Virus record (IMG/VR): IMGVR_UViG_3300035670_000155
From: an uncultured virus (IMG/VR IMGVR_UViG_3300035670_000155)
Taxonomy: Duplodnaviria; Heunggongvirae; Uroviricota; Caudoviricetes
Reading direction: 5' to 3' (one strand)
Length of the DNA stretch: 64,000 bases
Under the pieces are notes generated by a model. The model searched no databases and was not told the DNA's origin. It saw only the letters and a list, made by a program, of their open reading frames with translations. A program made the translations under genes and the position numbers. This document shows, one piece after another, positions 18,772 to 54,962 of the stretch. How positions within the stretch are numbered: the first letter of the stretch is position 1; every line of letters begins with the position of its first letter.

Positions 18772-20096
18772 CGCAACAGTTTGGTTTTAGAGCCTCGCGA
18801 AGCCTTGCCGAAGTAGAAGATAGAAACGAATGCTGGGACAATCTCGGCATTGATCGCCGCGATCTTGCTTTGCTCGTTGGTACTAGTGCCGCCGGCGTTA
18901 CGGAAGGAGACTATTTCAACTGCAAAGACCTTACCACCTTCTTGGAGCTGCAAATTAGCGGCCTGACAGTTGGGGCTTCATCTGGCTTGACGGCCATGCT
19001 TGGCAAGATCAGCAAAAATGGCGACAGTGGCATTGCATACCTATCGGGCGCAACTGTTAATAATGACAGGGCTTATTATGACGTTAATTTTGATATTATT
19101 TCTGCATCAACTGACAGTTATTTCTCGCCAACGGCATCAGGCGGCTACGATGTCGGGGCCCAGTATTTAACGGGCCCAGTGTATGTGCCTGCTCTTACTG
19201 TTAGCGGGGTAAATTTTAAGGGAGAAACAAAAAGCTGGTCTTCTTATTTTGTTAAGTCAAGGCAATATTTTCAATTTACGGACAATGCAGCAGCGCAAAG
19301 ATATGCGCCTTTGTATCTGGGGCCGCCTTCAACCATTTCTTCAAACGTGCTGTGGCTTGATTCTGAATACAGCGCAATCACTTTGGAAGGTGCAGGGGTG
19401 AGGCGATGGGAAGATGTGTTGGGACGAGGCAATGCCGTGCAAACTGAAAGTGCTTACAGGCCAACAGTTATATCGTCCGAACTCAATGGAAAGGACGGAG
19501 TGTATTTTGATGGCAGCAATGACTTCTTGAACATTGGAACAATTGGAGGCTCCATCCCCTCTGCCGCCACTTTAGTGGTGGTCTTTAGCATTAGCAATTC
19601 GCTATCCGCTGGCGACACAAATTATTCAATTGTCAGTTCACTCGCTAATGTTTCTAGCGCATGGAGGGGAGGCTCGTGGGGGCTGTTCACCAGTGCGCTC
19701 ATTGGAGGTTTTCCGGCAAACATGCCAGTTAATGGCACTTTTGTAGCCACTGTTCGAGCTAGTTCAGCGTATGGCTTGGAAATGAGAATCAATGGGCAAC
19801 GACTATCATTTATTTCCCCTCCATCGTACTCCTATTCAAGCGCCGGCAGTTTTGTTATTGGCGTGAGCGATGCAGTGAGCAGGTCGCAAGCCTTCCGGGG
19901 GAGCATTCACGCCCTTGCCTTATTCAGTGAAGTGTTGTCCGACACACAAGTCAACTCGATGGAAGAATATTTTCGATGGAGGTATGGCTTCATTTTTGAT
20001 CCAGATGGCGCATCATTGTCATATACGCAAGTGCTGCATACCGAGCGAAATGCAATATGGTTATTAGAGGACGATTCTGAAGTGGAGGCTGGTTGA
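18768..20096 (+). CDS. tail protein with LamG/concanavalin-like domain
   Basis: LWLDS...WED...GN...Q...RP...FDGSNDFL; N-terminal SLAEV...WDNLG. Confidence 0.65.
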   Translation: MTQQFGFRASRSLAEVEDRNECWDNLGIDRRDLALLVGTSAAGVTEGDYFNCKDLTTFLELQISGLTVGASSGLTAMLGKISKNGDSGIAYLSGATVNNDRAYYDVNFDIISASTDSYFSPTASGGYDVGAQYLTGPVYVPALTVSGVNFKGETKSWSSYFVKSRQYFQFTDNAAAQRYAPLYLGPPSTISSNVLWLDSEYSAITLEGAGVRRWEDVLGRGNAVQTESAYRPTVISSELNGKDGVYFDGSNDFLNIGTIGGSIPSAATLVVVFSISNSLSAGDTNYSIVSSLANVSSAWRGGSWGLFTSALIGGFPANMPVNGTFVATVRASSAYGLEMRINGQRLSFISPPSYSYSSAGSFVIGVSDAVSRSQAFRGSIHALALFSEVLSDTQVNSMEEYFRWRYGFIFDPDGASLSYTQVLHTERNAIWLLEDDSEVEAG

Positions 20097-20626
20097 CAAT
20101 GACTCGCGGACTTGTCAGAAAGAACAATTTAAGCGATTTGCTCGACCCTATTCAGGCCAGGGTTAATCTCGGCTTGCAAACTGTTGACTATCAGCGCATT
20201 AGAGGCTTGTTTCTGTCTTCGGGAGTGAGCAATATAGAAGTGCAAAGGATTGCCAATTCATCGTCTAATTTCCAAGCGCAAGTCAATGCATCCACTGCAA
20301 TTCTTGCGACTATCACCCCGGCTCTCTACGCAAACAAGGCTGGAGACGTGCTGACTGGCACGTGGGCAAATGAAGGCAAGATTGGCGCTAGCGGCCTAGT
20401 GGTTAGCGGATCCGTTCTTTCTGGGAGCACTGACATTTTATTTTCCCGCTCTCTTCCATTGTCGTCTCTTCAGTTAGAGACAGCTTCTGGCGTCACAATG
20501 CCTAGCGGACTAAGCTTGAACAATCTTGTGGGCAGTGGCAATATCAGCGTGGAATCAGGAAAGACCATTGCCAACTACATGAGCGTTCAAGTGGCGGGCG
20601 TTCCATATCGCTTGGAAATTGTATAG
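20093..20626 (+). CDS. tail fibre-associated protein
   Basis: GLVRKNNLSDL...ARVNLGL motif. Confidence 0.55.
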   Translation: MTMTRGLVRKNNLSDLLDPIQARVNLGLQTVDYQRIRGLFLSSGVSNIEVQRIANSSSNFQAQVNASTAILATITPALYANKAGDVLTGTWANEGKIGASGLVVSGSVLSGSTDILFSRSLPLSSLQLETASGVTMPSGLSLNNLVGSGNISVESGKTIANYMSVQVAGVPYRLEIV

Positions 20627-20688
20627 AGAAAGAAGAACACATGTGAATGGTCTCTAGAATGTCACTATCTTCTGGCGCAAACTAAACC

Positions 20689-22368
20689 GTGACTAAGATT
20701 TCTCAGCTTTCGTCGATTGGCGATTCGTTGGCAATTGACGACCAGTTTCTCATTCGTGACGTTAGCGATACGGTAACACCGAATAAAAGCGTTACTGTTA
20801 GCGGCATCACTCGCGGACTGGCCGACGGAGACGCGTTGGCGCCGGCCATTGCTTTTGCGGCAGATAAAAACACCGGCATCTACCGTCCTGGAGCAGACCA
20901 ACTAGCCATCTCAACTAATGGCACTGGGCGGTTGTTTGTTAATAGCAACGGTGATGTCAACATTGGACACAATTCAAGCGCCTATTCAAGCGCTGGCCGT
21001 GGCCTGATTTCTGTCAACGGCTCAAGCAGCTCAATTATTGACCTTCAGACCGGAGCAACGTCACGATTTCGGATGTTCTGCAATGGAACAGATGTAGAGC
21101 TGGTAAATACTGAAGCCACAGGTGTCATCAAGTTCGGCACTAATAGCGCCGAGCGCATGCGCCTGGACTCCAGTGGCCGATTAGGTCTGGGGACTAGTAG
21201 CCCCGGAGTTTTATTATCCCTTTCCAGCTCAAATTCAACCGTCTATACAAGCACTGGGGCTGCAGCATCTCCCACTTCAGGTACGTTTTGCAGCGTTGCC
21301 AATAGTGATACAACTTCTGGCGCCTCATCCCTGCAGAGCTTTACCATAGGTGGGGCATCTGGCACGTCAGTTGTTTATCACGGCGCCATTGGCGGAGGCT
21401 CCTCTGGGTCTGGTCAATATGTTATTGGACGCCGAACGGGAACTTCTAGCTATGCAGAAAGTCTGAGGATTGATTCCTCAGGGCGTGTAGGGATTGGCGT
21501 TACTGGGCCTCAAGCAGCCCTGCATGTTTCTGGCGGAGCGACATCTGGTGGGGTTGATAATGCGGCAGTTTTTACAGGAGGCGTAGCGAGTGTTACTGGA
21601 TCTGGAGCACGCATATACCTCTCGGGTACACCTGCTAGCGCAACTGTACGCGGAGCGTACATTGAAGGCGTTGTTGAAGATAGCGCTAACGCACACAGCC
21701 TGAGATTTGCTACTAATGCTAGCAGTGCTTCTCCGATTGAACGCGCCCGCATCGACAGCTCGGGACGCCTCTTAATTGGCACGTCTTCTGCGCGTACCGG
21801 ATGGTTTGGGAGCGCTTCTTATGCAATGCTTGCTCAAGTCGAAAGCGCAAGCAACGTAAATTCTGGGATTTCAATCGTCAATAACGTAAACGGCCTAGAT
21901 GTCGGCGGGAAAGTTTACCTAGGCAAATCCAGGACTGGAAGTGTAGGTGGCGTTACTGTTGTTCAGTCAGGAGATAATCTTGGCGGGATTGAGTTTCAAG
22001 GCGCTGATGGCACTGACATGGCTGCCGCTGCGTCTATCAACGCTTATGTAGACGGAACTCCTGGCAGCAACGTTATGCCGGGCAGGTTAGTGTTCTCCGT
22101 TACTGCTGATGGCTCGGCATCACCAACTGAAGCGCTGCGTATTTCTAGTAATCGTGCGATCACAGTTTCTGACGGCGGCAATGTCGTCCTTGGCACCACC
22201 ACCGGCACCAAGATCGGCACTGCTACCACGCAAAAGCTGGGCTTCTACAACGCCACGCCTGTGGTGCAGCCCACTGCTGTTGCTGATGCCACCGATGCAG
22301 CCAGCGTGATCACCCAGCTCAATGCACTGCTGTCGCGGATGCGTGATCTTGGCTTGATCGCTACCTAA
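20689..22368 (+). CDS. modular tail fibre protein
   Basis: Repeated ER(M/A)R(I/L)DSSGR(L/V)G(I/L)GT modules; DKNTGIYRPGADQLAISTNG. Confidence 0.8.
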   Translation: MTKISQLSSIGDSLAIDDQFLIRDVSDTVTPNKSVTVSGITRGLADGDALAPAIAFAADKNTGIYRPGADQLAISTNGTGRLFVNSNGDVNIGHNSSAYSSAGRGLISVNGSSSSIIDLQTGATSRFRMFCNGTDVELVNTEATGVIKFGTNSAERMRLDSSGRLGLGTSSPGVLLSLSSSNSTVYTSTGAAASPTSGTFCSVANSDTTSGASSLQSFTIGGASGTSVVYHGAIGGGSSGSGQYVIGRRTGTSSYAESLRIDSSGRVGIGVTGPQAALHVSGGATSGGVDNAAVFTGGVASVTGSGARIYLSGTPASATVRGAYIEGVVEDSANAHSLRFATNASSASPIERARIDSSGRLLIGTSSARTGWFGSASYAMLAQVESASNVNSGISIVNNVNGLDVGGKVYLGKSRTGSVGGVTVVQSGDNLGGIEFQGADGTDMAAAASINAYVDGTPGSNVMPGRLVFSVTADGSASPTEALRISSNRAITVSDGGNVVLGTTTGTKIGTATTQKLGFYNATPVVQPTAVADATDAASVITQLNALLSRMRDLGLIAT

Positions 22369-22392
22369 GCCCGGTAGTCCTACTCGAAAATT

Positions 22393-22422
22393 TGTCTAGC
22401 TCGGCAATTGCTGGGCTAGACA
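22393..22422. terminator. stem-loop after the tail fibre gene
   Basis: TGTCTAGCTCGGC-AATT-GCTGGGCTAGACA. Confidence 0.5.
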
Positions 22423-22451
22423 CCGTAGACTGTGGCACCGGCAACAGAACG

Positions 22452-22946
22452 ATGGCCCTGGAAAGCACCACACTGAACTCCGATCTTCTCCACATGTTGT
22501 TTGAAGAAAAAGACGGAGAGTTGTATAGAAAGGTTCAACGCGGCGGCGCCAAGGCAGGCGATCGGGCGGGATTTGTTGGGAATCGAGGTTATCGCATTGT
22601 TGTCGTAAACGGAAGACAGTACATGGAGCACCGTTTAATTTGGATTATGCATGGCAATGATCCAGTGCCAATGCTTGATCATATTGATGGAGATCAACTA
22701 AACAATCGAATTGAAAATTTGCGCCCTGCTACCAATTCGCAAAATCAAATGAACATGCGAATTCCGAAAGATAATACCTCTGGAATCAAAGGTGTTTCAT
22801 GGAACAAGTCAGCCAAGAAGTGGGTCGGGCAAGTTTGGAAAAACGGGAAGAACCATCGCACAAAGTTTTATGAATGCAAGCACGAGTGCGCAAAAGCCGT
22901 AGTAGATTTGCGAAAATCACTTCACGGCGATTTCGCCCGCCACTGA
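22452..22946 (+). CDS. HNH homing endonuclease with AP2-like C-terminus
   Basis: HRLIW...LDHIDGDQLNNRIENLR...NTSGIKGVSW. Confidence 0.9.
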   Translation: MALESTTLNSDLLHMLFEEKDGELYRKVQRGGAKAGDRAGFVGNRGYRIVVVNGRQYMEHRLIWIMHGNDPVPMLDHIDGDQLNNRIENLRPATNSQNQMNMRIPKDNTSGIKGVSWNKSAKKWVGQVWKNGKNHRTKFYECKHECAKAVVDLRKSLHGDFARH

Positions 22947-23062
22947 TCGAGGTCTGGCTCAACTATCTGGAATCTCCGGATGGTTGGGCTTGACGCCGTG
23001 TGGTAGTGTGGGAGGGCAGCGAGTTTGCGGCTCCTGCCCCTGGCCACAGTTCTCTAGAAACC

Positions 23063-23473
23063 ATGACCCAACAAGATTACAAGCACCCCATCACCCCACC
23101 GCCAGAGCTGAGCGATGAGCAAGTGGGCGAATGGCTGATCGACGATGGCTACCCGTGGGACCCTTCGGAGCAAGCTGTCATCACCATCACCACCAACCGG
23201 CTCAAGCACGTTGCCTGCCAAGCGTTCCAAGCTGGTGCCGACCAGGAGCTGGAGGCGTGCATCGACTGGATCTCTGTCTGGCACGGACTAGAGCATCCCG
23301 AGCTACTGATTGAACTACTCCGCGCCGCCCGCCGCCCCAAGCCGCCGAGCTTGAAGGAGCAGGCGCTGGCGCAACTGGATCACCTCCTTGAGCGTGCCTA
23401 CAAGCGAAACTTTGCAGGACTTCAAGTCGACACCATCCGACGCGCACTCGAACAACTCCCCGATAACGAGTAG
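23063..23473 (+). CDS. mosaic small protein, TPPPEL/RRPKPP family
   Basis: Paralog of 39282-39620 and 39613-39954. Confidence 0.7.
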   Translation: MTQQDYKHPITPPPELSDEQVGEWLIDDGYPWDPSEQAVITITTNRLKHVACQAFQAGADQELEACIDWISVWHGLEHPELLIELLRAARRPKPPSLKEQALAQLDHLLERAYKRNFAGLQVDTIRRALEQLPDNE

Positions 23474-23493
23474 CCATTCCCACTAATTTCCCA

Positions 23494-23685
23494 ATGACAG
23501 CACCACCTGCAAACGAACGATCTGCTTTGTGCGTTGGATCTTTAAAAGACTTGTGCGCTGGCTGGCTATGCGTTTTTGAAGGCACAGAAGAAGAATGCCG
23601 ACGTTACTTTGAAGATGGGAATGTTTCCGATGAGTACGACCGTGTTTTTATGATGAATCGTTGGCGCCACACAACCCTTCGCTAG
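23494..23685 (+). CDS. hypothetical protein (cassette-like)
   Basis: ORF bounded by TAG-N9-CTA sites. Confidence 0.55.
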   Translation: MTAPPANERSALCVGSLKDLCAGWLCVFEGTEEECRRYFEDGNVSDEYDRVFMMNRWRHTTLR

Positions 23686-23712
23686 ACCTCGTAGTCGCTT
23701 CCACTAATTACC

Positions 23713-23928
23713 ATGACCCAAAAAGATTATTCCAAGCTCACGCCAGACGACTGGTTTGAACTGCGCGAAAGACCCATGGACAAGCATTCCGTGTGGGCTC
23801 AGGACGGTGTTGTGAAAATGGCAAACAACGACGATCCTCACTACGTGGAAGTCTTCAAAACCCGCGAAGAAGTTGAATGTTTTATTGCTTACCTACTTTT
23901 GAAGGCTGATGAAGCCTGGCCAAGTTGA
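23713..23928 (+). CDS. hypothetical protein (cassette-like)
   Basis: ORF bounded by TAG-N9-CTA-like sites. Confidence 0.6.
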   Translation: MTQKDYSKLTPDDWFELRERPMDKHSVWAQDGVVKMANNDDPHYVEVFKTREEVECFIAYLLLKADEAWPS

Positions 23929-23994
23929 CAAGTCACCTTCGCTAAGAGGCGTGGCCATTTTCTTTTGTAGACTGTCTCAAGTCAATTGATTTCC

Positions 23995-24306
23995 ATGGAA
24001 ACTGTTTTCACCTGGCGCATTGCCAACCTTGAGCGCGAAACCGCAGACGGTTTTGTCTACACACTTCACTATACGATTGATGCCAGCGATGGTTCGTATT
24101 CTTCTGGGGCGTATGGTTCTTTGGGGCTTGAGCGTCCCGAGGACGAAATGATTCCCTTTGATAGCCTCACGGAAGAAACATGTATTAGCTGGGCCAAGGA
24201 AAAGCTTGGCGAGGAAAAAGTGGCCGAAATTGAAACTGCTCTTCAAAATCAGCTCGACGAAAAACATTCTCCTAGTCGCATGGCAGGCGTTCCCTGGCAA
24301 GGCTAA
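23995..24306 (+). CDS. conserved phage protein, probable tail fibre assembly partner
   Basis: FTWRIANLER...GAYGS...PFDSLTE...GVPW; family usually follows tail fibres. Confidence 0.65.
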   Translation: METVFTWRIANLERETADGFVYTLHYTIDASDGSYSSGAYGSLGLERPEDEMIPFDSLTEETCISWAKEKLGEEKVAEIETALQNQLDEKHSPSRMAGVPWQG

Positions 24307-24329
24307 GCTAGTCCTTTCTCTTTCCCATT

Positions 24330-24470
24330 GTGGCAGTCAAGAGCAAGGCAGGGGCTTCCAGCTCCAAGCGCATTATCATCAGCACTCCCAAGCGCACCAG
24401 GCAAGGCAATGGCGCTCATAGTCGCCCCAGCCATGGTCGAAAGCTTTTGCGAGGGCAGGGAAAAAGCTGA
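24330..24470 (+). CDS. small basic protein (not in ORF track)
   Basis: GTG start; MAVKSKAG...PKRTRQGNGAHS...LRGQGKS, 46 aa. Confidence 0.65.
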   Translation: MAVKSKAGASSSKRIIISTPKRTRQGNGAHSRPSHGRKLLRGQGKS

Positions 24471-24499
24471 TTGACGATGGGCAAACGAGAGGCTAGTCT
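24471..24499 (+). promoter_or_regulatory. sigma70-like promoter
   Basis: TTGACG-N17-TAGTCT. Confidence 0.6.
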
Positions 24500-24523
24500 A
24501 CGGGCTGGCCTCTTTTTCATGCA

Positions 24524-24772
24524 ATGGCTTTCGTCAATTCAATTTCCTTTTCCCATCGTTTTTCTGATGATGGCGTGTGTCATGACACATGCTCCTATCA
24601 AGAAATTAACCACACCTACAGCGCTGATTCAGCCCCTGCAATGATGAGGGCTTTCTATCAATTTATGATGGGTTGTGGCTATGCCCCTCAAAGCGTGGCA
24701 GAAGCAATGCTTTCCATTGGCTCTGAATACGAGGAAGCTTATTGCTACGATAAAGCTAAGACTGATAGCTAA
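24524..24772 (+). CDS. hypothetical protein
   Basis: ORF downstream of the promoter. Confidence 0.6.
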   Translation: MAFVNSISFSHRFSDDGVCHDTCSYQEINHTYSADSAPAMMRAFYQFMMGCGYAPQSVAEAMLSIGSEYEEAYCYDKAKTDS

Positions 24773-24774
24773 TC

Positions 24775-25107
24775 ATGGCGCAACGTATTGTCAATGGAGA
24801 GCAGTATGATGCCGTCATTATTGGCGGTGATCTAGACGGAAGCCCTCTTGATATTGAGGGGCAGATTAGCGTTGACAAGCTGCAAGCTTCTTCTGCTTTT
24901 ACCGTCACTCCCAGCGACAATACAGACTTGTCAGTGATCACAAGCGCCCTTTACGTTGGCTTCACTGGCAATGTGAGCTTGGTTTGCTCTGGTGATAGCG
25001 CTGCCGTTACGTTCTTTAATGTGCCAGGCGGCAGCTTTCTCCCTCTCCACGTGAAGAGAGTGAGGAGCACTGGCACCACCGCTTCTGGCATTGTTGGAGT
25101 GGTTTAA
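24775..25107 (+). CDS. head spike base protein (RcGTA Rcc01079-like)
   Basis: VTPSDNTDL...ALYVG...VTFFNVPGGSFLPLHVKRVRSTGTTA. Confidence 0.7.
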   Translation: MAQRIVNGEQYDAVIIGGDLDGSPLDIEGQISVDKLQASSAFTVTPSDNTDLSVITSALYVGFTGNVSLVCSGDSAAVTFFNVPGGSFLPLHVKRVRSTGTTASGIVGVV

Positions 25108-25235
25108 TGCTGCTTACCGTTGCCCTTTCTATTAGCAACCATCTTGAACGTGCCATTTCTCGGCTCTATTTGCTCACAGAAGCTGGAGTCTATCTAGAGT
25201 TGGAGAATGGTTTACCAATTGAGACGGAGCTTTAA
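25107..25235 (+). CDS. 42-aa putative head-spike partner peptide (not in ORF track)
   Basis: TAATG coupling at both ends; MLLTVALSIS...YLLTEAGVYLELE. Confidence 0.55.
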   Translation: MLLTVALSISNHLERAISRLYLLTEAGVYLELENGLPIETEL

Positions 25236-26467
25236 TGGCGCAAGTACGAAGGGGCGGTGAACAGTTTGAGACCACCATCGAAGCTGATCATCGCGGGCAG
25301 CTAATTCAGAAAGGGCCTGACAGTGGCATGGTTGATGCTTTCGGGCGTCAGCGCTTTAGCGAGCCCTTCACCCTGTTTGACTCCATGCTGCGCTATTCCA
25401 GGCGTACGGATCAATGGGACGAAGCAGTGGTGGGCTCAGGCTCGACAAACTATTTGGTCAATGAAAGCTCGCTTGAGCTGAAAACCACTGTTGCTTCGGG
25501 CGACACTGCATTGCGCCGCACTCGTAAGCACTTCCCCTACCAGCCTGGCAAGTCGATCATGGTGCTTGCCAGTTTTGTCGGTAACACGCCTATGGCTGGC
25601 CTTGTGCAGGAAGTGGGCTACTTTGATGATGACAATGGCGTCATCCTCAGAGCCAATGGAGAGCAAATTGAGCTTGTCGTGAGAAGCTTTACGACGGGCT
25701 CTGCTCAGGAGACAGTGGTGCCGCAAAGCGCCTGGAACATCGATGCGCTTCCTAGCTTTGACTTTTCCAAGGCCAACATTCTCATTGCCGACTTGGAATG
25801 GTTGGGTGTTGGCAGAGTGCGGATGGGCTTTGTCATTGATGGGGAAATCATTTATTGCCACGAATTCAACCACGCCAATAACATCGATAGGGTCTATATG
25901 ACTTCGGCCATTCTGCCGTTGTCCTATCGCATTTACAATTCTTCCTCCATTGCAGCCCCTGCTCGCCTCAAGCAAATTTGCTCGAGCGTAGTGAGTGAAG
26001 GTGGCTACCAGCCCACTGGCCCCATTTACATCGCGGGCAAAGGCGTTGCTGGCTTTGCTGCCATTTCTTCTGAAACCATGGTGGCGGCCATTCGCATGGC
26101 TAGCGGTCGCACTGACAACGTGATCATCCCTGCGCAAATTGATGTGAGTCTGGGCGGCAATCCTGCCTCTAACACTGTGGCACAATGGCGACTGCGCCTC
26201 AATCCTACGATTAGCGGCACTTGGCTGGATGCCGCCAATGGCAGAGGCAATGTGCAAACGATGAGCACTGGCACGTTCAGCGGGGGCACGGTCATTGGAG
26301 CAGGGCTTGTTGCTTCCAGGAGTGCCATTGAGTTTGATCCTGAAAGCGGCTTGGCTCTTTCGCTTGGGCAAACCATTGACGGCACCAGCGACGTGATTGC
26401 TCTCACCATTGAATGCAGCACTTCAGAAAATGCCACTGGCCTTTTGGGCTGGAGGGAAGTGGTATGA
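25235..26467 (+). CDS. virion structural protein, YQPG family (paralog 3)
   Basis: RKHFPYQPGK, EWLGVG, LGWREV. Confidence 0.65.
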   Translation: MAQVRRGGEQFETTIEADHRGQLIQKGPDSGMVDAFGRQRFSEPFTLFDSMLRYSRRTDQWDEAVVGSGSTNYLVNESSLELKTTVASGDTALRRTRKHFPYQPGKSIMVLASFVGNTPMAGLVQEVGYFDDDNGVILRANGEQIELVVRSFTTGSAQETVVPQSAWNIDALPSFDFSKANILIADLEWLGVGRVRMGFVIDGEIIYCHEFNHANNIDRVYMTSAILPLSYRIYNSSSIAAPARLKQICSSVVSEGGYQPTGPIYIAGKGVAGFAAISSETMVAAIRMASGRTDNVIIPAQIDVSLGGNPASNTVAQWRLRLNPTISGTWLDAANGRGNVQTMSTGTFSGGTVIGAGLVASRSAIEFDPESGLALSLGQTIDGTSDVIALTIECSTSENATGLLGWREVV

Positions 26468-26494
26468 TTCGACCATCCCTTTTGATTCCCCTCC

Positions 26495-26689
26495 ATGGAA
26501 TCTCACTACAAGCAGCAGCAATCTTTAATTAGCGAAGCGCTGTGCGAGCTGATGGCAGCGGAAGACGATTGCAGGATTGCGCACCAATCCATCATCGGGG
26601 CCATTGATGAGTGGTTGTCCTACCACGAAAGTGAAGCAAGGAAATGGCGGACGCTGCGGATTATGGTGCAAGGGCCTGAGATGCTATGA
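26495..26689 (+). CDS. hypothetical protein
   Basis: ORF with pyrimidine-rich leader. Confidence 0.55.
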   Translation: MESHYKQQQSLISEALCELMAAEDDCRIAHQSIIGAIDEWLSYHESEARKWRTLRIMVQGPEML

Positions 26690-26988
26690 CAATGAAGGAT
26701 TTGTTAAATTCTGCTGAAATTCAAGAACTTCGGCAATCGTTTAATGTTTTCAGGCAGCAGCAACAAGCTGAAGACCAAGCATGGTGGGATAGTCTTGATT
26801 ACGAACAACGCGCTCAAGCCTTTCGGCAAGTGTGCAGGCTGATGTATAGGGCGGAAGTGGAAGACAAAGGCACCTATCGCTGGGCCATTTATGACATCTT
26901 TGGCTTGGAATATGGCGATGGACTAGACCACTACATGGAGCTTCACAATCTCATTGGCCAGGGGCTGGACTACCGAGAGTCCAAGTGA
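26686..26988 (+). CDS. hypothetical protein
   Basis: ORF coupled to the upstream gene. Confidence 0.6.
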   Translation: MTMKDLLNSAEIQELRQSFNVFRQQQQAEDQAWWDSLDYEQRAQAFRQVCRLMYRAEVEDKGTYRWAIYDIFGLEYGDGLDHYMELHNLIGQGLDYRESK

Positions 26989-27358
26989 TGCGGAGTTCTG
27001 CGCCTAGGGCCTTAATGTCATCACTGGCATCGTCTGGCGCTTCGTGGATGATCATCACGCTAGGCACCACTGCATTAGGCAATGGCGTGACAGTGGCTTT
27101 AGGGAAAAGTTCCTGAGCCTTCGCTGCAAGGACCTCTGAGCGATGCTCTCGCTCTTCCGCTTCCCATTGCTCTACCAATGCCTTGGCTTGCTTGTCAACG
27201 GCTTGCAGCGTGGTTTCCGTTTTCCATTCCACCCACGCAGGACGGCACCATTCCAGCAGGCGCTTATACCACCATTTAGAAGCAATGGAAGGGCGTTGCT
27301 TGGCTAGCTCAAGAGCTAGCTCGTAGCACAGCGCAAGCAGCCATTCCCGCCAGTTCAT
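26951..27358 (-). CDS. hypothetical protein in lysis cassette
   Basis: ATGA overlap with the endolysin stop. Confidence 0.55.
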   Translation of the reverse strand: MNWREWLLALCYELALELAKQRPSIASKWWYKRLLEWCRPAWVEWKTETTLQAVDKQAKALVEQWEAEEREHRSEVLAAKAQELFPKATVTPLPNAVVPSVMIIHEAPDDASDDIKALGAELRITWTLGSPAPGQ

Positions 27359-28299
27359 TGGCTCTCTTGCCAAACACTCACAAACACTTTTCCTTGCCTG
27401 TAAAGCGGAAGGATCCGATGGATGAGGTCTGCGTTTCTAGCGCGGATGCAACCATGAGTTGCAAGAAGGCGCTGCTCAGGTGCCCATGCTCCAGGCCACC
27501 CCAATGCACTGCCTCCCCCATGGATGCCTATTCCCGCACGCCCTAGGCTTCTTTCTTGATCTTCCAGCTCGACCATGTCGTAAAACGCCCAACCATATGC
27601 CATGAGCGTGCGATCGTAGGGAGCCTTGTCGCCATGAAGAGCGTAATCGTTATAAAGCTGCCCCAGTACATACAGGCCCACGGGCGTATCCGACCTTCTA
27701 ATCTTCCATTCAAAATCGCTGTACTGCCCGCGAGCCAAGCAAGGAATCTCCCACAAAAGTTTCCCTTCAAAAGAAAAGGCTTTCATGGTTTCGCTGGCAT
27801 CATTCACGACAAGGTGAGAATCGCCTTGCTTAAAGCCAAAATCGTGAGGACGTTTCTTGGGGCCGATCATGGTAATTTTTGTGGATTCAGGAGCGTATTG
27901 CTTCATTAGCTTTGAAAGTTTTGCCGGATAGTCAGGGTCCGTCGCGTATTTCTGTTGATAAAGCATGCGGGCCGCAGCGTAGCGGTTGGGGGCGTTGTTG
28001 ATGCCCTTGAAATGGCGATAGTCCTTGTACCAGCGAGAAATCAAGTATTCAATGCAAGCTTCGATGGAGGGAAAATCAATGAAGCCTGCCCGAATTGTCA
28101 CCCACTGCCCATCGTAAAATTCTTTCGTTGAGACAGTTGACCCGTCGCCTTTTAGGCCGAGGATATTGTTTTTGCCAGAGAAATGCTTGCCAAAGCCACT
28201 CTCTAGACAACATTGAGCCGCAACAAGCTCTGGAAAGCGTGCCCCGCATTTGCGAGCAATGTCAAAGCATCGCCTCCAGAAGGCTTGTTCGGCAGTCAT
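27355..28299 (-). CDS. endolysin: GH73-like glucosaminidase plus YkuD-like L,D-transpeptidase domain
   Basis: AQCCLESGFG...NNILGLKG...YATDPDY; IGIHGGG...THGCIR. Confidence 0.8.
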   Translation of the reverse strand: MTAEQAFWRRCFDIARKCGARFPELVAAQCCLESGFGKHFSGKNNILGLKGDGSTVSTKEFYDGQWVTIRAGFIDFPSIEACIEYLISRWYKDYRHFKGINNAPNRYAAARMLYQQKYATDPDYPAKLSKLMKQYAPESTKITMIGPKKRPHDFGFKQGDSHLVVNDASETMKAFSFEGKLLWEIPCLARGQYSDFEWKIRRSDTPVGLYVLGQLYNDYALHGDKAPYDRTLMAYGWAFYDMVELEDQERSLGRAGIGIHGGGSALGWPGAWAPEQRLLATHGCIRARNADLIHRILPLYRQGKVFVSVWQESQ

Positions 28300-28769: not shown

Positions 28770-29258
28770 ATGCGGCAAGACAATGGACCAGAGAATTTGC
28801 TCTATTCTTTGTCTGTTTTACGCCCTGGAGAAGCCAAACGCCGCTTCCGCAAAAGCATCTTTGAAGACTATCCCCTGCGAGGCCCCTTTAACCATTGCGC
28901 CTGTGCTTATTGCGGGCGATGGAACGAAAAGCTGACCATTGACCATATTGTGCCCAAGAGCAAGGGAGGGCCGCACTTTGCGAAATGGAACAGCGCTCCT
29001 TCATGCCTTAGTTGCAATGCTGCCAAGAGCAATTTGCCACTGTTTGAATGGTGGCGTCCGCAGCAGTTCTGGAGCCAAGAGCGCGAAGATGCTTTGATGG
29101 CATGGATTTACGCCCATAGCTTTGTCAGCGCTCATACGGCCATTGGCGAATGGGAAGAATGGATGCACGAAACGCAGCGCATTGTGCCCATTCATGAAGT
29201 GCATGAAAAAGCGGCCCGAGTGTGGCCGCTCTCTTTGCAACTAGGGCTAGCCAGTTAA
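28770..29258 (+). CDS. HNH endonuclease
   Basis: CAYCG...LTIDHIVPKSKGG...N...CLSCNAAK. Confidence 0.85.
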   Translation: MRQDNGPENLLYSLSVLRPGEAKRRFRKSIFEDYPLRGPFNHCACAYCGRWNEKLTIDHIVPKSKGGPHFAKWNSAPSCLSCNAAKSNLPLFEWWRPQQFWSQEREDALMAWIYAHSFVSAHTAIGEWEEWMHETQRIVPIHEVHEKAARVWPLSLQLGLAS

Positions 29259-32685: not shown

Positions 32686-33450
32686 TTACCCCTTATCGGT
32701 CGTTAGCGCAAATGCTCGCCCGCCTGGGTAGTGATCATTGAAATATCTCTTTACAGTGTCCGCCATGATACGCTGCTGCGCTATCAGTTCAAAGCCGTCA
32801 AGGTGGACAAGCTGAAGCAGGCTCTTGCCATTCTCTTCCTCTGGGTCAAAACAGGAAATGACGCACCAAGCCTCGTCGATGGAGGTGTCGTACATTTGTT
32901 CTGCTGCCATTGAATAGGCCCCGAGCTGCCGCTTGTAATCGGCTAGCTGGTAGTCAGGCTTCTCTTTGAAGCTCGTCTTCCAATCAATGAGAGCAATGCG
33001 ACCATCACCCATTTTTGCGACCATATCGAGCGTGCCGCTATAGCCAATTTTTTCATCAAGATCGAACCAGGCCACTGCGCTTTCAACCAGAACAGGCTCT
33101 GCAATGTGCTCCAAGAATGGATCGACTGTCTGAAAATAAACAGCCCATTCTGGCGCCTTGTCTAAATGATGCTCAATATCTTCTCCATTGAACCAATCTT
33201 CAATCACGCCATGGAGCCAAGTGCCGCGATTAGCAGCAAGACGAGTGCGTCTATTAGCTTCATCGTTCCCTACGCGCTTCCGCCAATTCATGATGGCCAT
33301 GATTTTTGCCACTGGTGCCATGGAAGACAGAACAGTGGTAACGGAAGGAAGGAGCATACCCTCTGGCACATTTGGAAAGCCCAAGCATTGATAATGCCTC
33401 TTTCCATTGAGGCTGATGCGGTTGGGCTCAAAGCGCTCAAATGAGGGCAT
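32686..33450 (-). CDS. PD-(D/E)XK exonuclease
   Basis: PSVTTVL...RGTWLH...YSGTLD...IDWKTS...QLGAY. Confidence 0.85.
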   Translation of the reverse strand: MPSFERFEPNRISLNGKRHYQCLGFPNVPEGMLLPSVTTVLSSMAPVAKIMAIMNWRKRVGNDEANRRTRLAANRGTWLHGVIEDWFNGEDIEHHLDKAPEWAVYFQTVDPFLEHIAEPVLVESAVAWFDLDEKIGYSGTLDMVAKMGDGRIALIDWKTSFKEKPDYQLADYKRQLGAYSMAAEQMYDTSIDEAWCVISCFDPEEENGKSLLQLVHLDGFELIAQQRIMADTVKRYFNDHYPGGRAFALTTDKG

Positions 33451-33625
33451 GATTTTCTCGAGAGCAAGGTCGTAGCAAGCCACTATGGCCCCTATCGACT
33501 AGGAATGCAATAGCCTCCTGAACTGTAGTAGCCAAGCGGGCAAGAGCCATTCTTGACAATTGGCTGATTGCAGGCCATCACTGGCGAAGCAAGAAGGACG
33601 ATGGAGAAAAGCGAAAGGAAAATAG

Positions 33626-33877
33626 TCATCGTAAAAGATCGTAGGAATCAACAATTGCGCCAGTGTCGCGGTCCCAGCAGGTGTGGCAGTCGGGGCATTG
33701 ATAGGCAATGCAACGATCTTGCTGCCAGGAGCTAATGGCAATCACTCGTGAGAACCATTTGCTATTTCCGAATAACGAACGGCTTTTTTCTGGAATGGGC
33801 TTGTCATGCCAGAGTGTCCCGCACTCGGGACAGTGGGAAATGTCAGAGAAGGAGCGAGGTTTGGGCAGGCTGATCAT
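33626..33877 (-). CDS. zinc-ribbon protein
   Basis: CPECG...CPDC. Confidence 0.6.
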   Translation of the reverse strand: MISLPKPRSFSDISHCPECGTLWHDKPIPEKSRSLFGNSKWFSRVIAISSWQQDRCIAYQCPDCHTCWDRDTGAIVDSYDLLR

Positions 33878-33958
33878 AATCTTCAGAGAGAGGGGCACCT
33901 TCAGCATCAAGGGCAACTGCGCCCGCGAAAACTCTCGCGAGCGCTGCTGCTGCCCTGT

Positions 33959-34933
33959 CTACTTTTTTGCCTCCACATAGGCCCTCACTGCTTCAACGGC
34001 ACTGTCAGCTCCTTTGAGGCAAGCTTCACGAAGCTCGTCAATGTCTTTTCCCATTGCAGCTTTTGTGATTTTGATGCCTTCTTCCTTCACCCATGCAGCA
34101 ACCATGGAGGTGACGACATTGGCGAACATTGCAGCATCTTTGATGTCCTCGCCTTTGGACAGGCCCACGGTTTCAAGGGCTCGCTTGCCAGCCATCATGC
34201 TGCTGCGTTCGTCTGCGTGGAGGAACAGATTGGCTTTACAGAAGCTGAGAAGTGCTCCTTTGCCATCAAATTCGGCGGTTCCATTGGAGGCAGCAGCCCC
34301 CTCGCTTCCAACTGTTGCAGCAGGTTCTGTAGCCTTTTGCTCTTTCGCGACAGTCCGCACTTCAGGCTTCGTAGTCGTCTGTTGGAGCGGGAGCCTGGGC
34401 GATTGCTCTTTTTCATCGTCTGCTTTGGGAACGTCTTCACCCGCATAAAGCTTGAGCCCAAGGCCGGTGAAGGTGGCAATGCACTTCACGGAAGCGCGTT
34501 GGATGTTGTCGCTCACCTGACGAGCGTCCAATGCTTTCACTGCATTGTGCTTGTTGTCCATCACGGGAAACACCAGCGCGGGTGTGCGCTTGATGCCGTC
34601 TGTGAGATAGGGACGCAGCAGCCAACAGCCCTCCTGGCCAAATACGGGCCAGCCAGCTTCCTTTTCTTCAAAGGCCACATAAACAGTCGGAAATTGCTCC
34701 TTCAAATAGCGGAAAGCAAAAGGCCACGAAAGATAGGAGAGGCCCTTGTAGTTCTTCTCCACATGATCGCCAATTGGCAGTTCGTAAGCCTTGGTAAAGG
34801 CTTCTGGAGAAATTTCGAGAGGGCTGAAATGGCCAAGCATGCGCTCAGTGAGCATTGCTTCGTTGACGGCAGTAACGGGCAGAGTCATATTTTGGAAATG
34901 GGCAGGGTCGTAAAAGAGAAGAGAAGAGTTCAT
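33959..34933 (-). CDS. ssDNA annealing recombinase (DUF1071/Sak3-like)
   Basis: VEKNYKGLSYLSW...PVMDNKHNA...IQRASVKCIA..GLGLKLYAGED. Confidence 0.85.
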   Translation of the reverse strand: MNSSLLFYDPAHFQNMTLPVTAVNEAMLTERMLGHFSPLEISPEAFTKAYELPIGDHVEKNYKGLSYLSWPFAFRYLKEQFPTVYVAFEEKEAGWPVFGQEGCWLLRPYLTDGIKRTPALVFPVMDNKHNAVKALDARQVSDNIQRASVKCIATFTGLGLKLYAGEDVPKADDEKEQSPRLPLQQTTTKPEVRTVAKEQKATEPAATVGSEGAAASNGTAEFDGKGALLSFCKANLFLHADERSSMMAGKRALETVGLSKGEDIKDAAMFANVVTSMVAAWVKEEGIKITKAAMGKDIDELREACLKGADSAVEAVRAYVEAKK

Positions 34934-39107: not shown

Positions 39108-39285
39108 CGTAGTGTGGGTAGCAAAAGAGTTTTTCAATGCGTTCAAGCTCAATCTCAAACTGTTCAGCTATGCAAAACGGTTGACAATTATGAGCTTCGG
39201 CTAGCTCGCTTAACTGAAAACACGTTACTTCACGAAGCTTTTCAAGAATAAAACAACGTAAGGCGCGTTTATGCACTAGCTTCAT
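39100..39285 (-). CDS. hypothetical protein
   Basis: AT-richer coupled ORF. Confidence 0.5.
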   Translation of the reverse strand: MKLVHKRALRCFILEKLREVTCFQLSELAEAHNCQPFCIAEQFEIELERIEKLFCYPHYDD

Positions 39286-39620
39286 TCGGGCAGCGCCTCC
39301 AGTGCGCGGCGGATGGTGTCGGTGATCTCGGGTAAGTAGTGCGCGTCGCGCTCAATGGTGCCCAGCATTTGCAAGGCAATACTGTTCAACGTTTGAGGCT
39401 TGGGGCGGCGAGCGGCGCGGAGAGCTGGCACTGCCTCGTGGACCACCCCGACGGGATCGGCCATAAGCCACTCACAGCACTTCTCCAGCTCAGTGTCGGC
39501 GCCCCATTGGGCACCAGCTTGGTAGGCGAGGTGAAGTCGCTCCAACCAGGTGAGCTTTGGCTCATCGCAAAGTTCCTGCACTAGCTCTGGCGGTGGGGTG
39601 ATGTTGTTGCTGTCAGTCAT
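39282..39620 (-). CDS. mosaic small protein, TPPPEL/RRPKP family
   Basis: ITPPPEL...QWGADTELEKCC...LRAARRPKP...IRRALE. Confidence 0.7.
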   Translation of the reverse strand: MTDSNNITPPPELVQELCDEPKLTWLERLHLAYQAGAQWGADTELEKCCEWLMADPVGVVHEAVPALRAARRPKPQTLNSIALQMLGTIERDAHYLPEITDTIRRALEALPE

Positions 39621-39954
39621 CGATTTGCTCCAAGGCGCGGCGGACAACGTTGGCAACATCTGCCGACAGGCGATCATCAGCAACAGCAGTGTCGATGGCC
39701 AGCAGCGCCTGCTCCTTCAAGGACGGCGGCTTGGGGCGTCTGGCAGCGCGGAGGTCGGAGGGACCAGCCATGAAATCGCGGTCCATCAGCTCACAGCACG
39801 CCTCCAGCTCCTGGTCGGCGCCCCATTGGGCGGCCTTTTCTGAAACGTATTGCATCCACGCCACAGGATCATGAAGGTCAATTCGCTGCGCTTGCTGAGC
39901 CCATAACCGACGCAACTCAGGCGGTGGGGTGACGGGGCTTTGATGGTTGGTCAT
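39613..39954 (-). CDS. mosaic small protein, TPPPEL/RRPKPP family
   Basis: VTPPPEL...QWGADQELEACC...LRAARRPKPPSLKEQAL...VRRALE. Confidence 0.7.
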   Translation of the reverse strand: MTNHQSPVTPPPELRRLWAQQAQRIDLHDPVAWMQYVSEKAAQWGADQELEACCELMDRDFMAGPSDLRAARRPKPPSLKEQALLAIDTAVADDRLSADVANVVRRALEQIDD

Positions 39955-40098
39955 GGAAGAATCCTGCTGGCAACAAAAATCAACAAAGCGCAGACGCTCC
40001 AATAGAGCGCTGCAATAAACCAAATGTCATGAGGCATGGGCATGGCATGGCCGAGGACTTCGTCATGGTACACCAGCGTCAACCATGCTCTTTCCCAT

Positions 40099-45879: not shown

Positions 45880-45983
45880 TTGTGACGATTTGTTAACTGG
45901 CCCTTGCTCCATTTGACTTTTGTCGGAACAAGGGCTAACTTTTGGATCAAGCGGCTCGACCCCGCTCCCTTCTCTCCAAACCC

Positions 45984-46994
45984 ATGGCTCATCAATTTTC
46001 TTCCGGCGCTTTCTTCCACGGCCAAGCCGCTTGGCACAAGCTTGGTCACGTGGTGGATGGCACCCTCCCTGCTCGCGAAGCTTTTGCCCTTGGCGAAGCC
46101 GACTGGGAAGTCATCAGCACTCCCATCTTTGATCCCGCTGGCCAGCCCATTGAAGGCTTCCAGGCCATCACTCGTGGTGACAATGGGAAAGTGCTTTCCG
46201 TTCAGAAAGAAAGCTACACGCTCGTGCAGAACGAACAGCTCATTCGTCTGGCCGAGGCCCTGCACGAAGATGCAGAAATGAGCGCAGTGTGCGTGCTCGA
46301 CGAGGGCCGTAAAGTCACCTTCACTGCCAAAATCAATGGCGCAGAAGGCGAAGTGCTCAAGGGTGATGAAATCTGTCAGTACATTGTTGGCGCCACTAGC
46401 CACGATGGTTCCATCGCCTTCCAAACCCTCTTCACTCCCGTGAGAGTGGTTTGTGCCAACACGCTCAGCGCTGCTCTTGGCCATGCCGAACACACTGGTG
46501 CCACCGGCAAAGGCAAGCGTATCAGCATTCGCCACACGATGAACGCCAATGCAATGATCGAGAGGCTTCCCGAAATCATTGACATCAAGCGCCAGCAATT
46601 TACTGCCGGGCTTGAGGAGCTGGAAGCAATGGCGGCAAAGCCCTGCACCAGTGCTCAGTTCAAGGCCTATTGCGAAGCCGTGTTTGCTGACCAACTGGCT
46701 GGCACTGTCAACGCTAAGCGCGGCGATAAGACCACTGCTCGTCCCAAGACACTGGCTGACCTGCCTCAGTAGGACAGCGTGGCCAACAAGTTTGCTGGTG
46801 ACGGCATTGGCTTCGACATCAAAGGCGTGCAAGGCACCTACTGGGGCGCCTACAACGCCATCACCGAGTGGGTGACGCACGAGGCTGGTCGTGGTGATGA
46901 CATCGAGGCTGCTCGCAGGCGCCTGGAAAGCCAATGGTGGGGCACTGGTGCTGCCACCATCACCAAAGCCCATGCCCTGGCTCTGGCGGCCTGA
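45984..46994 (+). pseudogene. DUF932-family protein interrupted by an in-frame TAG at 46770-46772
   Basis: AWHKLG...VQNE...SHDGS...TPVRVVCANTL, continuing in frame to GTYWGAYNAITEW. Confidence 0.75.
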
Positions 46995-54154: not shown

Positions 54155-54227
54155 TTCTCTCTCCATAGTTCTTTACAAAGGGGGAGTTTCTTCCCCTTTT
54201 TCATTCTTTTCCATCGCTTTCCTAAAT

Positions 54228-54962
54228 ATGATCGCCTCCCAGCAGAGTCCCTATTTGAATGTCCTTGCCAAAAAGCGTGCATGGACGCCTGTGCAAGTGG
54301 CAAAAGGACAGGTGACAGAGGGCGCTGAAAGCACTTTGCTTAAGGCTTTGGCATTGCGCCACCTTGAAATTCCCGTAAAGGAGCTTCTCGAGGAGGGTAT
54401 GAAACGCGAACTACCCTCCACCCCTGGCCTTATTGAGACTCTTCGCTCTAACCAGGACGATGAGGACCGCCACTTGGAGGCTTTGAACTACGTGGCCGAC
54501 GCCCACGGTACTGACGCAAAGTCAGAGCGTGAAGTGATGAGCATTTTGAAAGCTTGGAACGAGCACCCTGCTCATCCCATTCTCAAGGCAGGCATTATGG
54601 AACGCTCTGTTTTTTTCGTGGCGCTTCCGTTTTTCAGACAGACGGGTGACGTGGGCATGCGCACTGTCTCGCAAGATATTTCGAGAGATGAAAGGGTTCA
54701 TACCGTGGTCAATGCCATGGTGAGCAAGGAACTAGGGGAAAAGGAAAGCCAAAGTCTTGACAAACTTCGCGCCGCCACTGTTGCTTGGCTTTTTGATGAT
54801 CTCGGCGCCTCGTCCAATCAATGGCTGAACAAAGATTTTTGGCTGCGTCAATCTCGCTCTTTATTTTGGACTGGCAAGGCTCCCGAAATGGCCGCAACTC
54901 GCAGCAGCCGATGCCCTGCTTTTTTCGAAAGCCCCAACACTTCACTGCCTATGTATTCTTAG
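54228..54962 (+). CDS. nrdB: ferritin-like RNR beta subunit
   Basis: DEDRH and DERVH ExxH motifs directly after the alpha subunit. Confidence 0.8.
   Translation: MIASQQSPYLNVLAKKRAWTPVQVAKGQVTEGAESTLLKALALRHLEIPVKELLEEGMKRELPSTPGLIETLRSNQDDEDRHLEALNYVADAHGTDAKSEREVMSILKAWNEHPAHPILKAGIMERSVFFVALPFFRQTGDVGMRTVSQDISRDERVHTVVNAMVSKELGEKESQSLDKLRAATVAWLFDDLGASSNQWLNKDFWLRQSRSLFWTGKAPEMAATRSSRCPAFFESPNTSLPMYS

Follow-up and report, generated by a model that had tools for sequence, protein, structure and literature searches.

In a 64,000-nucleotide (nt) stretch of an uncultured virus of the Caudoviricetes (IMG/VR record IMGVR_UViG_3300035670_000155; the whole stretch is referred to here as the window), a tail-fibre gene is followed by a slot of small, variable genes that ends at a conserved DUF7936 gene (Table 1). 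A sequence-only reading of this locus had proposed that a single 15-bp site, TAG-N9-CTA, recurs at module junctions inside the fibre gene (copies s1 to s5) and between the small genes (a half copy, h, and copies i1 to i3), and that all copies serve one site-specific recombination system. Our comparisons indicate that this proposal probably merged two features, namely motif patches of the fibre gene that are conserved at the nucleotide level and a separate intergenic linker, with exchange at both running through short homology and without a dedicated recombinase. The core intuition of the proposal, that fibre modules have DNA-level junctions and that cassettes of gene size lie behind the fibre gene, is borne out by the comparative data.

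Pfam and PHROG matches identify the window as a segment of a tailed-phage genome, with genes for a tape-measure protein, tail protein L, a J-like protein, a portal protein and an endolysin, together with thymidylate synthase, dCTP deaminase and pieces of ribonucleotide reductase; the Pfam scans took in 14 + 71 = 85 predicted window proteins. Its closest named DNA relatives are the Synechococcus phages S-H1, S-CBP3, KBS-S-2A, S-CBP4 and S-RIP1, and we regard it as a siphovirus of cyanophage-like type. The nearest record (G001) begins at window position 25086, with the fibre locus outside its coverage. S-H1, KBS-S-2A and S-CBP3 have in common the gene order of fibre gene, variable small open reading frames (ORFs) and DUF7936 gene. 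The fibre gene of the window lies downstream of the tape-measure, tail L and J-like genes, and its two matches annotated as "tail fiber protein" have E values of 5e-54 (phrog_18345) and 6e-44 (phrog_9942).

Table 1. Features of the fibre locus and recombination genes of the window, in window positions
Feature	Position	Strand	Remarks
Tail-fibre gene	20689-22368	+	559 aa; repeated ER.R[IL]DSSGR[LV].[IL]GT-type motif; phrog_18345, phrog_9942
N-terminal motif island TGIYRPGADQLAISTNGTGRLFV, with s1 (20903-20917)	20869-20960	+	Left edge of swapped distal fibre
Motif island A ERMRLDSSGRLGLGTSSP, with s2 (21182-21196)	21146-21216	+	86% to L501
Motif B SLRIDSSGRVGIGVTGP, with s3 (21488-21502)	21457-21510	+	21457-21498 81% identical in L501
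Motif island C ERARIDSSGRLLIGTSS, with s4 (21773-21787)	21738-21790	+	Near-invariant nucleotides in 7/7 aligned relatives
Motif D MPGRLVFSVTADGSASPTEALRISS, with s5 (22088-22102)	22075-22150	+	Many relatives match only from ~residue 481 on
C-terminal fibre module rich in G/C-ending codons	22174-22368	+	Alone common to ~40 viral contigs
Linker copy h GTAGTCCTACTC, CTACT core	22374-22385	+	Right half missing or replaced by HNH module; right edge of swapped fibre
Free-standing HNH_3 + AP2 endonuclease gene	22452-22946	+	Pfam HNH_3 1e-11, AP2 4e-5; phrog_99 2e-58
Conserved leader with hairpin GGGCAG-14 nt-CTGCCC, before MTQ-family gene	23005-23062	+	Near-identical in L096, L121, L175, L184
Small MTQQ..HPITPPPEL-family gene	23063-23473	+	phrog_32006; stop codon is the TAG of i1
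Linker copy i1 GTAGCCATTCCCACTAATTTCC + CA, ATTCC core	23470-23493	+	Between stop 23471 and ATG 23494
63-aa ORF between i1 and i2	23494-23685	+	No family match; otherwise only in near-identical contig
Linker copy i2 TAGACCTC GTAGTCGCTTCCACTAATTACC, GCTTC core	23691-23712 (listed from 23683)	+	Ends at ATG 23713
71-aa ORF (MTQKDYSK...)	23713-23928	+	Relatives in 11 loci
Degenerate linker copy i3 CAAGTCACCTTCGCTAAGAGG, ACCTT core, two changed end bases	23929-23949	+	20/22 to L125 copy
DUF7936 gene	23995-24306	+	Pfam 5e-32; conserved right neighbour of variable slot
Phage recombination genes	32686-34933	-	PD-(D/E)XK nuclease 32686-33483; Sak-type single-strand annealing protein 33959-34933

A conserved linker behind the fibre gene

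The linker exists as a conserved element, its flanks combine freely, and breakpoints fall on it. Its consensus, GTAG[TC]C-N5-CACT(AAT[CT]ACC[C]ATG), spans ~22-26 nt and recurs in many viral contigs; the string TAG[TC]CCTACTCACTTCTATG, which links a stop codon to the ATG that follows, is what the comparison of S-H1, KBS-S-2A and S-CBP3 has in common. The carriers are cyanophage genomes of both podo- and siphovirus type, and each holds 1-4 copies, all confined to the slot that the fibre gene and the DUF7936 gene enclose; within the 64 kb of the window, no linker-like sequence was found elsewhere. Three scans of a viral contig collection, with parts of the linker held fixed, returned at least 121, 58 and at least 121 stretches. 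A DUF7936 gene lies within 1.5 kb in 61 of the 121 loci listed from the first scan, and a gene of the MTQQ..HPITPPPEL family (the MTQ family) is present in 67 of the 121 listed from the third, mostly directly behind the linker. Across 189 distinct instances, an ORF of 60 or more codons that precedes the linker stops exactly at its TAG in 118 (8 and 5 in the other frames), and an ATG that opens a frame stands 3 nt after CACT in 28 instances and 8 nt after it in 41. When the arms were fixed and the centre left free, 113 distinct copies included the cores ATTAC (49), GCTTC (13), ACCTT (6) and AGACC (4). To the left of GTAG, similarity between loci is lost after a few bases.

The intergenic copies of the window bracket single ORFs (23494-23685 and 23713-23928), as the sequence-only reading had observed. 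The prefix of i2, ACCTCGTAG (ACCTCG), is also found in KBS-S-2A and in viral contigs, and the copy in contig L125 that matches i3, TAGTCACCTTCACTAAGAGGCG, likewise sits before a DUF7936 gene. The first 20 nt of the 71-aa ORF, leader included, duplicate positions 23060-23079 at 19 of 20 bases.

Exchange at the linker is apparent from its flanks. Clustering of the 54-nt flanks of 146 intergenic-type instances gave 66 upstream and 80 downstream clusters, of which the largest upstream cluster (fibre ends with a coiled-coil tail, one example having a Peptidase_S74 domain) meets 26 downstream clusters, and the largest downstream cluster (the MTQ family) meets 22 upstream clusters; two four-gamete squares occur among them. 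In contigs of Logan runs, i1- and i2-type linkers both stand before MTQ-family genes. The clearest example is contig L305, which matches the window at 99.91% identity over 3344 nt (22369-25712) and continues upstream into an unrelated fibre end of the Peptidase_S74 type. This pair represents a fibre replacement in otherwise near-identical genomes, the right breakpoint of which lies no more than 6 nt from the half site h; the suggestion that the intergenic sites are boundary elements of gene-sized modules is supported, with a mosaic breakpoint of near-identical genomes on one copy. Logan contigs from two further studies contain the HNH module from 22374-22379 onwards without the window fibre.

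Behind the fibre stop of two other contigs (L089 and L109), whose fibre end is 61% identical to that of the window, two linkers follow each other directly (GTAGTCCTACTCACTAGTCACCTTCTAAT) without an intervening gene, ahead of the DUF7936 gene. This arrangement looks like an empty slot, and it looks as though each module had brought its own linker copy, rather than like a hybrid site left by excision.

The gene behind the half copy h encodes a protein with an HNH nuclease domain (PF13392, HNH_3; 44.5 bits against a cut-off of 24.8), together with an AP2 match that falls under the Pfam cut-off (24.1 against 33.3 bits). Homologs with at least 63% identity were found in five loci, including contig L305 and L376-L379, and in all five the string (T)CCTACTC directly precedes the gene, behind three to four different upstream genes; in L376 a full linker also follows the stop codon of the HNH gene. 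Presence and absence of the gene between the same flanks is seen in L121, L175 and L184, in which an intact linker is followed by 28 nt and then by a leader of the 23005 type and an MTQ-family gene, with no HNH gene. In these three contigs and in L096 the leader corresponding to 23005-23062 comes after an intact linker element, and the extra module of the window (~620 nt, the HNH gene and its flanks) starts right after GTAGTCCTACTC. From these alignments, the HNH gene either interrupts the linker, as a homing gene would interrupt its target, or represents a module with a variant right half. Between the half element and the HNH start codon there is an 18-nt inverted repeat (22393-22422, 89% complementary), and a similar hairpin precedes the HNH homologs of L377 and L378. 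In relatives, a TATAGT box precedes leaders of the 23005-23062 type and may be the MTQ-family gene's own promoter.

An alternative that we hold to be possible, if doubtful, is that the linker is primarily an expression signal, acting in stop-restart coupling without a Shine-Dalgarno sequence, in RNA processing or as a regulator site, and that shuffling is a by-product of its conservation. Its geometry speaks for such a role: the TAG truly terminates the long upstream ORF in 118 of the 131 instances that have one, the ATG stands at two fixed distances, and the linker always has the orientation of the genes. A Shine-Dalgarno-like tetramer precedes only 27 of 98 predicted genes, so that other initiation signals must exist, and hairpin/T-run terminators often follow copies with a CTACT core. 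Against such a role stand its low number of copies (1-4 per genome, all in one slot) and the 83 of the 189 instances (some of them chance matches) with no ATG within 25 nt. Neither sigma-70 promoters nor intrinsic terminators were found at the linker copies in a scan of 20000-27500, and 20000-25500 gave no Rfam match at E<=1; the lack of a sigma-70-like promoter and of an Rfam match likewise counts against an expression signal. A threonine second codon is not commoner behind the linker (17 of 46 clusters) than in window genes at large (18 of 61). The MTQ family itself has members that manage without a linker: two tandem paralogs, 37-40% identical to the gene at 23063-23473, lie on the minus strand at 39285-39966 in the early/replication region, where they share an ATGA overlap and are not preceded by a linker.

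Known signals were also considered. The core ACTCACTA resembles promoters of the T7/T3 type, and this candidate was rejected given 1-3 copies per genome, the absence of a single-subunit RNA polymerase from the window and the presence of the linker in siphovirus-type genomes. Comparison of the consensus, by eye, with the motifs of NtcA (GTA-N8-TAC), the LexA box, boxA and RNase E (RN|WUU) gave a misfit in each case. Linker 12-13-mers were not found in the literature searched, subscription papers and supplements lying outside it; matches to a linker 10-mer were, among the matches listed, unrelated primer uses, and literature on intergenic, boundary or linker elements of cyanophages held nothing on the linker among the matches listed.

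Motif islands in the fibre gene

All nine strings reported as copies of TAG-N9-CTA are present (20903, 21182, 21488, 21773 and 22088 in the fibre gene; 22375, 23471, 23692 and 23930 between genes), but the pattern as defined is exact in only four of them (20903, 21182, 23471, 23692), the remaining five deviating by one mismatch (21488, 22088, 23930) or two (21773, 22375). Nor is the pattern enriched. Six exact copies occur in the 64 kb, compared with 4.97 +/- 2.17 in dinucleotide shuffles, and 42 of 100 such shuffles reach six or more. Copies with one mismatch number 209 in the whole window against 160 +/- 13 in shuffles, an excess that is window-wide; the region itself holds 13 such copies and 82 with two mismatches, against 9.4 and 83 expected from the density elsewhere. 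Under a synonymous codon shuffle of the fibre gene, its two exact copies compare with 0.48 expected (P(>=2)=0.077). The sole unusual feature of the pattern is that four of the six exact copies cluster inside 2.8 kb (0.1 expected), and this clustering has two unrelated causes, the fibre coding motifs and the intergenic element. The two exact intergenic copies arise because the consensus of the linker contains TAG-N9-CTA, and the likeness between coding and intergenic sites ends at TAG and CTA, contrary to the idea of one common system. Coding copies lack the other conserved linker positions; s1 comes nearest, with two mismatches in 13, a likeness that we estimate to arise by chance about once per window.

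The coding sites are the DNA image of a strand-turn motif, [LV][GA][IL][GS]T[SN], inside the repeated ER.RIDSSGR... motif. All five begin at codon position 2, in agreement with the shared reading phase originally reported, and encode QLAISTNG, GRLGLGTS, GRVGIGVT, GRLLIGTS and GRLVFSVT at s1 to s5. Their placement at fibre repeat boundaries stands for s1, s2, s3 and s5, which fall on [LV][GAV][ILF][GS][TV][NST], and fails for s4, which is one codon off. The fibre contains seven copies of the motif G.[LVI].[LIVF]G, of which five have no site and only two carry TAG. Synonymous positions in the DSSGR part of the three full repeats differ freely between repeats. A rise of C/G-ending codons in the last fibre segment, also part of the earlier description, is evident from the GC content at third codon positions (GC3), which is 0.80 at residues 496-525 and 0.27-0.60 before them.

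A DNA-level pattern was nevertheless correctly suspected, in that the coding sites lie in the most nucleotide-conserved cores of the fibre gene, and synonymous change does not freely destroy them (7/7 in motif C; xTA in 13 of 15 relatives at the N-terminal motif). The N-terminal island shows 81-95% nucleotide identity to the fibre genes of S-CBP4, S-RIP1 and S-EIVl. Among 15 distinct relatives the first site codon is xTA (GTA or CTA) in 13, and the GCC and ATC codons are kept in 14/15 and 14/14, with Ser and Pro codons that vary a few positions upstream of s1. The codon string TTA GGT CTG GGG ACT AGT AGC of island A recurs in five loci, and GTA GGG ATT GGC of motif B recurs in several relatives. 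When seven fibres are aligned by codon, the motif C codons GAA CGC. CGC ATC GAC and TTA. GGC ACG TCT are fixed in all seven, and other amino-acid-invariant columns use 2-4 codons each; the number of distinct codons per invariant residue is 1.5 in the motif C block compared with 2.73 elsewhere (permutation P=0.001). The Ser, Pro, Gly and first Leu residues of motif C use 3-4 codons, with fixed use of the rare TTA, GTA/CTA, GGG and ACG. Leu and Val are least often encoded by TTA (5%), CTA (8%) and GTA (12%) in this phage, the background use of xTA being 12-13%.

The sequence-only reading had further claimed that modules swap at the coding sites, and relatives do drop similarity, or gain and lose modules, at the conserved stretches. 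In relatives that are collinear for more than 4.8 kb upstream (70-87% identity), similarity ends at 20918, 20943 or 20960, just past s1; L504 (69% identity) stays similar up to 21147. Distal of s1, what these relatives have in common with the window is confined to 21146-21216 and 21457-21498 (L501) or to 21180-21203 (L502), and the latter match, 24/24 nt, is s2 plus its edges. Summed depth of Logan contigs (four runs, three studies) rises 10- to 100-fold at 20854-20980, 21108-21234 and 21743-21869, with no such spike at motif B (21457-21510), and contig joints run from island to island (20937-47 to 21149-82, 20940 to 21738, and 21203-6 to 21739), either directly or with other DNA between. Whole inter-motif segments are missing or extra in other fibres: L002 and L003 align with residues 51-92 and then 347-559, L022 with residues 3-281 and then 472-559, and the loci L015-L066 with residues ~481-559 only. 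Conserved motifs thus alternate with variable segments, and exchanges, mapped by similarity ends, lie at or near the motifs.

It is unlikely, in our judgement, that the coding copies have no DNA-level meaning and represent a peptide motif with chance codons, conserved through recent common descent. The codon-shuffle result (P=0.077) is compatible with this explanation, xTA occurs in 4 of ~9 motif-like copies against a background of ~0.2, and the relatives are not independent samples. Nonetheless, neighbouring synonymous sites vary (3-4 codons) while the rare codons are fixed, and the islands are bordered on both sides by unalignable DNA, which simple descent would not produce. Quite improbable is the related explanation that the rare xTA, GGG and ACG codons at motif starts are kept for translation, for example as a pause that aids folding or trimerisation of the fibre. 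TTA, CTA and GTA are indeed the rarest Leu/Val codons and the first motif position is kept in 13/15 and 7/7 cases, yet common codons (GCC, ATC, GGC, CGC) are conserved as well, over the whole 15-50-nt block, and other copies of the motif use common codons.

Several further observations concern the fibre gene. The site s2 lies inside the one terminator-like hairpin of the scanned region (21186-21207; TCTGGGG-8 nt-CCCCGGA, then a T-rich run) within the coding sequence, where it corresponds to Gly and Pro codons; L502 is 100% identical over 21180-21203, which covers the hairpin except for its last four bases. With the exception of L503, the six contigs that are collinear upstream (L500-L504 and L001) stop no farther than ~200-950 nt into the fibre gene, which suggests that assemblies break at a variable, island-sharing fibre gene. 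In the C-terminal module (GC3 0.80), 91 nt at 22189-22279 (GTKIGTATTQKLGFYNATPVVQP) have 86% DNA identity to tail-protein genes of Gordonia phages, in which the counterpart is near the N-terminus of a ~800-aa protein, the opposite end to that of the window fibre. A short fibre module is here shared across phyla.

Proposed short-homology exchange and its alternatives

In the reading that we prefer, motif stretches of 50-90 nt, which many co-occurring phages conserve at the nucleotide level, would act as in-frame patches for homologous recombination, the segments between them being replaced, lost or gained, and many combinations of fibre 3' ends, the HNH-AP2 gene and small accessory genes meet at the linker. 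Exchange would run via short homology and would employ the phage's own Sak annealing protein and nuclease (Pfam E values of 1e-18 and 2e-7, respectively). Double-strand breaks by the HNH-AP2 enzyme may stimulate exchange, its gene always lying within or right after the half element. According to published accounts, phage annealing proteins promote recombination of short or diverged sequences and add to mosaicism (PMC5499656, PMC3945230, PMC8093625). Beyond this, we tentatively consider that the linker may be a dedicated portable target, in which case the HNH-AP2 family would cut intact linkers and repair would swap fibre ends and small genes across podo- and siphovirus lineages of cyanophages. 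If so, a gene-cassette economy would do without an integrase and depend on annealing proteins and a homing endonuclease.

A number of points weigh against exchange by short homology. The linker arms measure 6 and ~11 nt around a variable 5-nt core, shorter than the homology usually said to be required by annealing proteins, so that homology-driven exchange at such arms is a candidate mechanism only. Match counts are uninformative, a real 15-mer giving at least 121 stretches and the reversed control 15-mer 114, and because the two are so close the case for the linker rests on context; in addition, the scans fixed most positions of the element, so that consensus and core frequencies are biased by design. 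In the fibre gene, ends of high-scoring segment pairs and of contigs favour conserved blocks, breakpoints at islands are expected under any conserved-motif model, and the synonymous conservation of the islands could come from selection at the RNA or translation level rather than from recombination. The HNH junction could be inherited and not targeted, there being only four independent homolog loci beyond the window pair. Lastly, a recombinase could lie beyond the 64-kb window or in the host, and contigs cannot reveal rare circles or deletions.

The original proposal, in which one tyrosine-recombinase-type system uses TAG-N9-CTA for in-frame fibre swaps and small-gene capture, with different spacers keeping the order, is to be judged very improbable. 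It would account for a linker with conserved ends and a variable 5-nt core of few dominant types, for single ORFs bracketed in one orientation and for flanks reshuffled exactly at the linker, and PF00589 is found in two of five element-bearing records. The 85 window proteins, however, include no Phage_integrase or resolvase by Pfam, in keeping with the earlier statement that the window holds no recombinase (the search covered the window, which is not the whole genome, and the host was not searched), and PF00589 is absent from two linker carriers, the complete genome of KBS-S-2A and a 78-kb record that is 97% complete. A tyrosine-recombinase core site has inverted arms of ~7-13 bp around a spacer of 6-8 bp, whereas in GTAGTC-N5-CACTAAT the inverted ends are only TAG(T)/(A)CTA, 3-4 bp, and no cognate recombinase accompanies them in the window. 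The coding copies, moreover, do not share the linker's other conserved positions. As to recombination products, none of the 15 contig joints listed out of 123 links two window linker copies, and contigs drop rare forms. Excision should leave a single hybrid site and not the tandem linkers of L089 and L109, and U1-GCTTC-D0 and U1-ATTAC-D0 both occur, one flank pair having different cores.

The resemblance to integrons and shufflons is confined to the layout, in that the borders of cassettes in one locus bear repeats whose ends are conserved and whose centres vary, as in integron attC and shufflon sfx sites. An attC site is 57-141 bp long with an imperfect internal palindrome, and attI and intI lie beside the cassette array, whereas the linker is a 22-26-nt element with no internal palindrome and no integrase. 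It likewise differs in having no Rci, no 7-13-bp arms, no inverted segments and, at L089 and L109, tandem empty sites. Alternative fibre segments, as expected of a shufflon, were sought by tblastn in six frames of the window, which returned only the fibre gene itself (nothing else at E<3), and the neighbouring ORFs are all on the plus strand. An integron- or shufflon-like system is not supported.

Known systems, implications and minor features

The nearest parallel for the linker is offered by the PeSL elements of T4-type phages, described as "mobile regulatory cassettes" for modular shuffling, recombination between copies of which explains gain, loss and replacement of genes in close relatives (Arbiol et al. 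2010, PMC2839356). In both cases a hyperplastic region has small non-essential ORFs bordered by short conserved units between genes, and relatives differ in gene content at the copies. A PeSL combines a sigma-70-like promoter with a terminator stem-loop and occurs in many copies, whereas the linker has neither promoter nor stem-loop, occurs 1-4 times per genome, is 22-26 nt long without a hairpin of its own, holds the upstream stop, abuts the next start and also bounds the fibre gene; hairpins that trail some linker copies lie outside the conserved unit. PeSL mini-circles were shown physically.

Short conserved sequences at gene boundaries have reportedly been proposed to direct homologous exchange of modules in lambdoid phages, within a modular theory that is said to go back to Susskind and Botstein in 1978 and to have been taken up by Clark et al. 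in 2001. The linker is similar in kind but, unlike these locus-specific cases, a ~22-nt sequence recurs across morphologically different phage groups with both stop and start contexts. The linker is not a member of the PeSL or lambdoid boundary families. Free-standing HNH homing endonuclease genes of phages include the mob and seg genes of T4. As with these, the flanks of the HNH gene also occur without it in close relatives, and the gene is intergenic beside conserved sequence and has a near-identity breakpoint at its edge; in contrast to them, its presumed target would be a short portable intergenic linker instead of the coding sequence of a conserved protein.

T-even tail-fibre and adhesin genes exchange segments at conserved motifs (Tetart et al. 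1996/1998, cited in Trojet et al. 2011, PMC3157838). The window fibre works in the same way, with the motif ER.RIDSSGR.GIGT in place of the glycine-rich motifs of T-even phages, and with exchange inferred from comparisons and not from crosses. For the window fibre, conservation of the motif blocks is shown at synonymous sites. T-even adhesin motifs also include His boxes.

Tail fibres set the host range of phages, and their natural exchange is mostly inferred from a few coliphage systems. In the present case fibre replacement has defined junctions, a nucleotide-conserved N-terminal motif on the left and a linker shared across cyanophage groups on the right, with an endonuclease gene family tied to the same linker and a genome pair that matches at 99.9% identity to one side of the linker and has unrelated sequence to the other. 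Were the linker a recombination target, it would account for the movement of fibre ends and accessory genes between distant aquatic phages and would provide a handle to find variable slots in metagenomes, and S-CBP3 and KBS-S-2A are culturable carriers. If it is an expression signal, it would represent an unrecognised stop-restart signal in phages most of whose genes have no Shine-Dalgarno sequence.

Elsewhere in the window, at 52706-55721, the ribonucleotide reductase gene may be split or invaded, since only the first ~130 residues of the ORF at 52706-54154 match the reductase barrel domain and an endonuclease gene of NUMOD4 + HNH_3 type (55011-55721) follows closely downstream. Adjacent ORFs in 45942-46994 cover successive parts of the DUF932 profile (positions 2-169 and 176-227) and may be one gene broken by a stop or frameshift. 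An HNH endonuclease gene of family PF01844 at 28770-29258, the third HNH gene in the 64 kb, adjoins the DUF3310 and thymidylate synthase genes.

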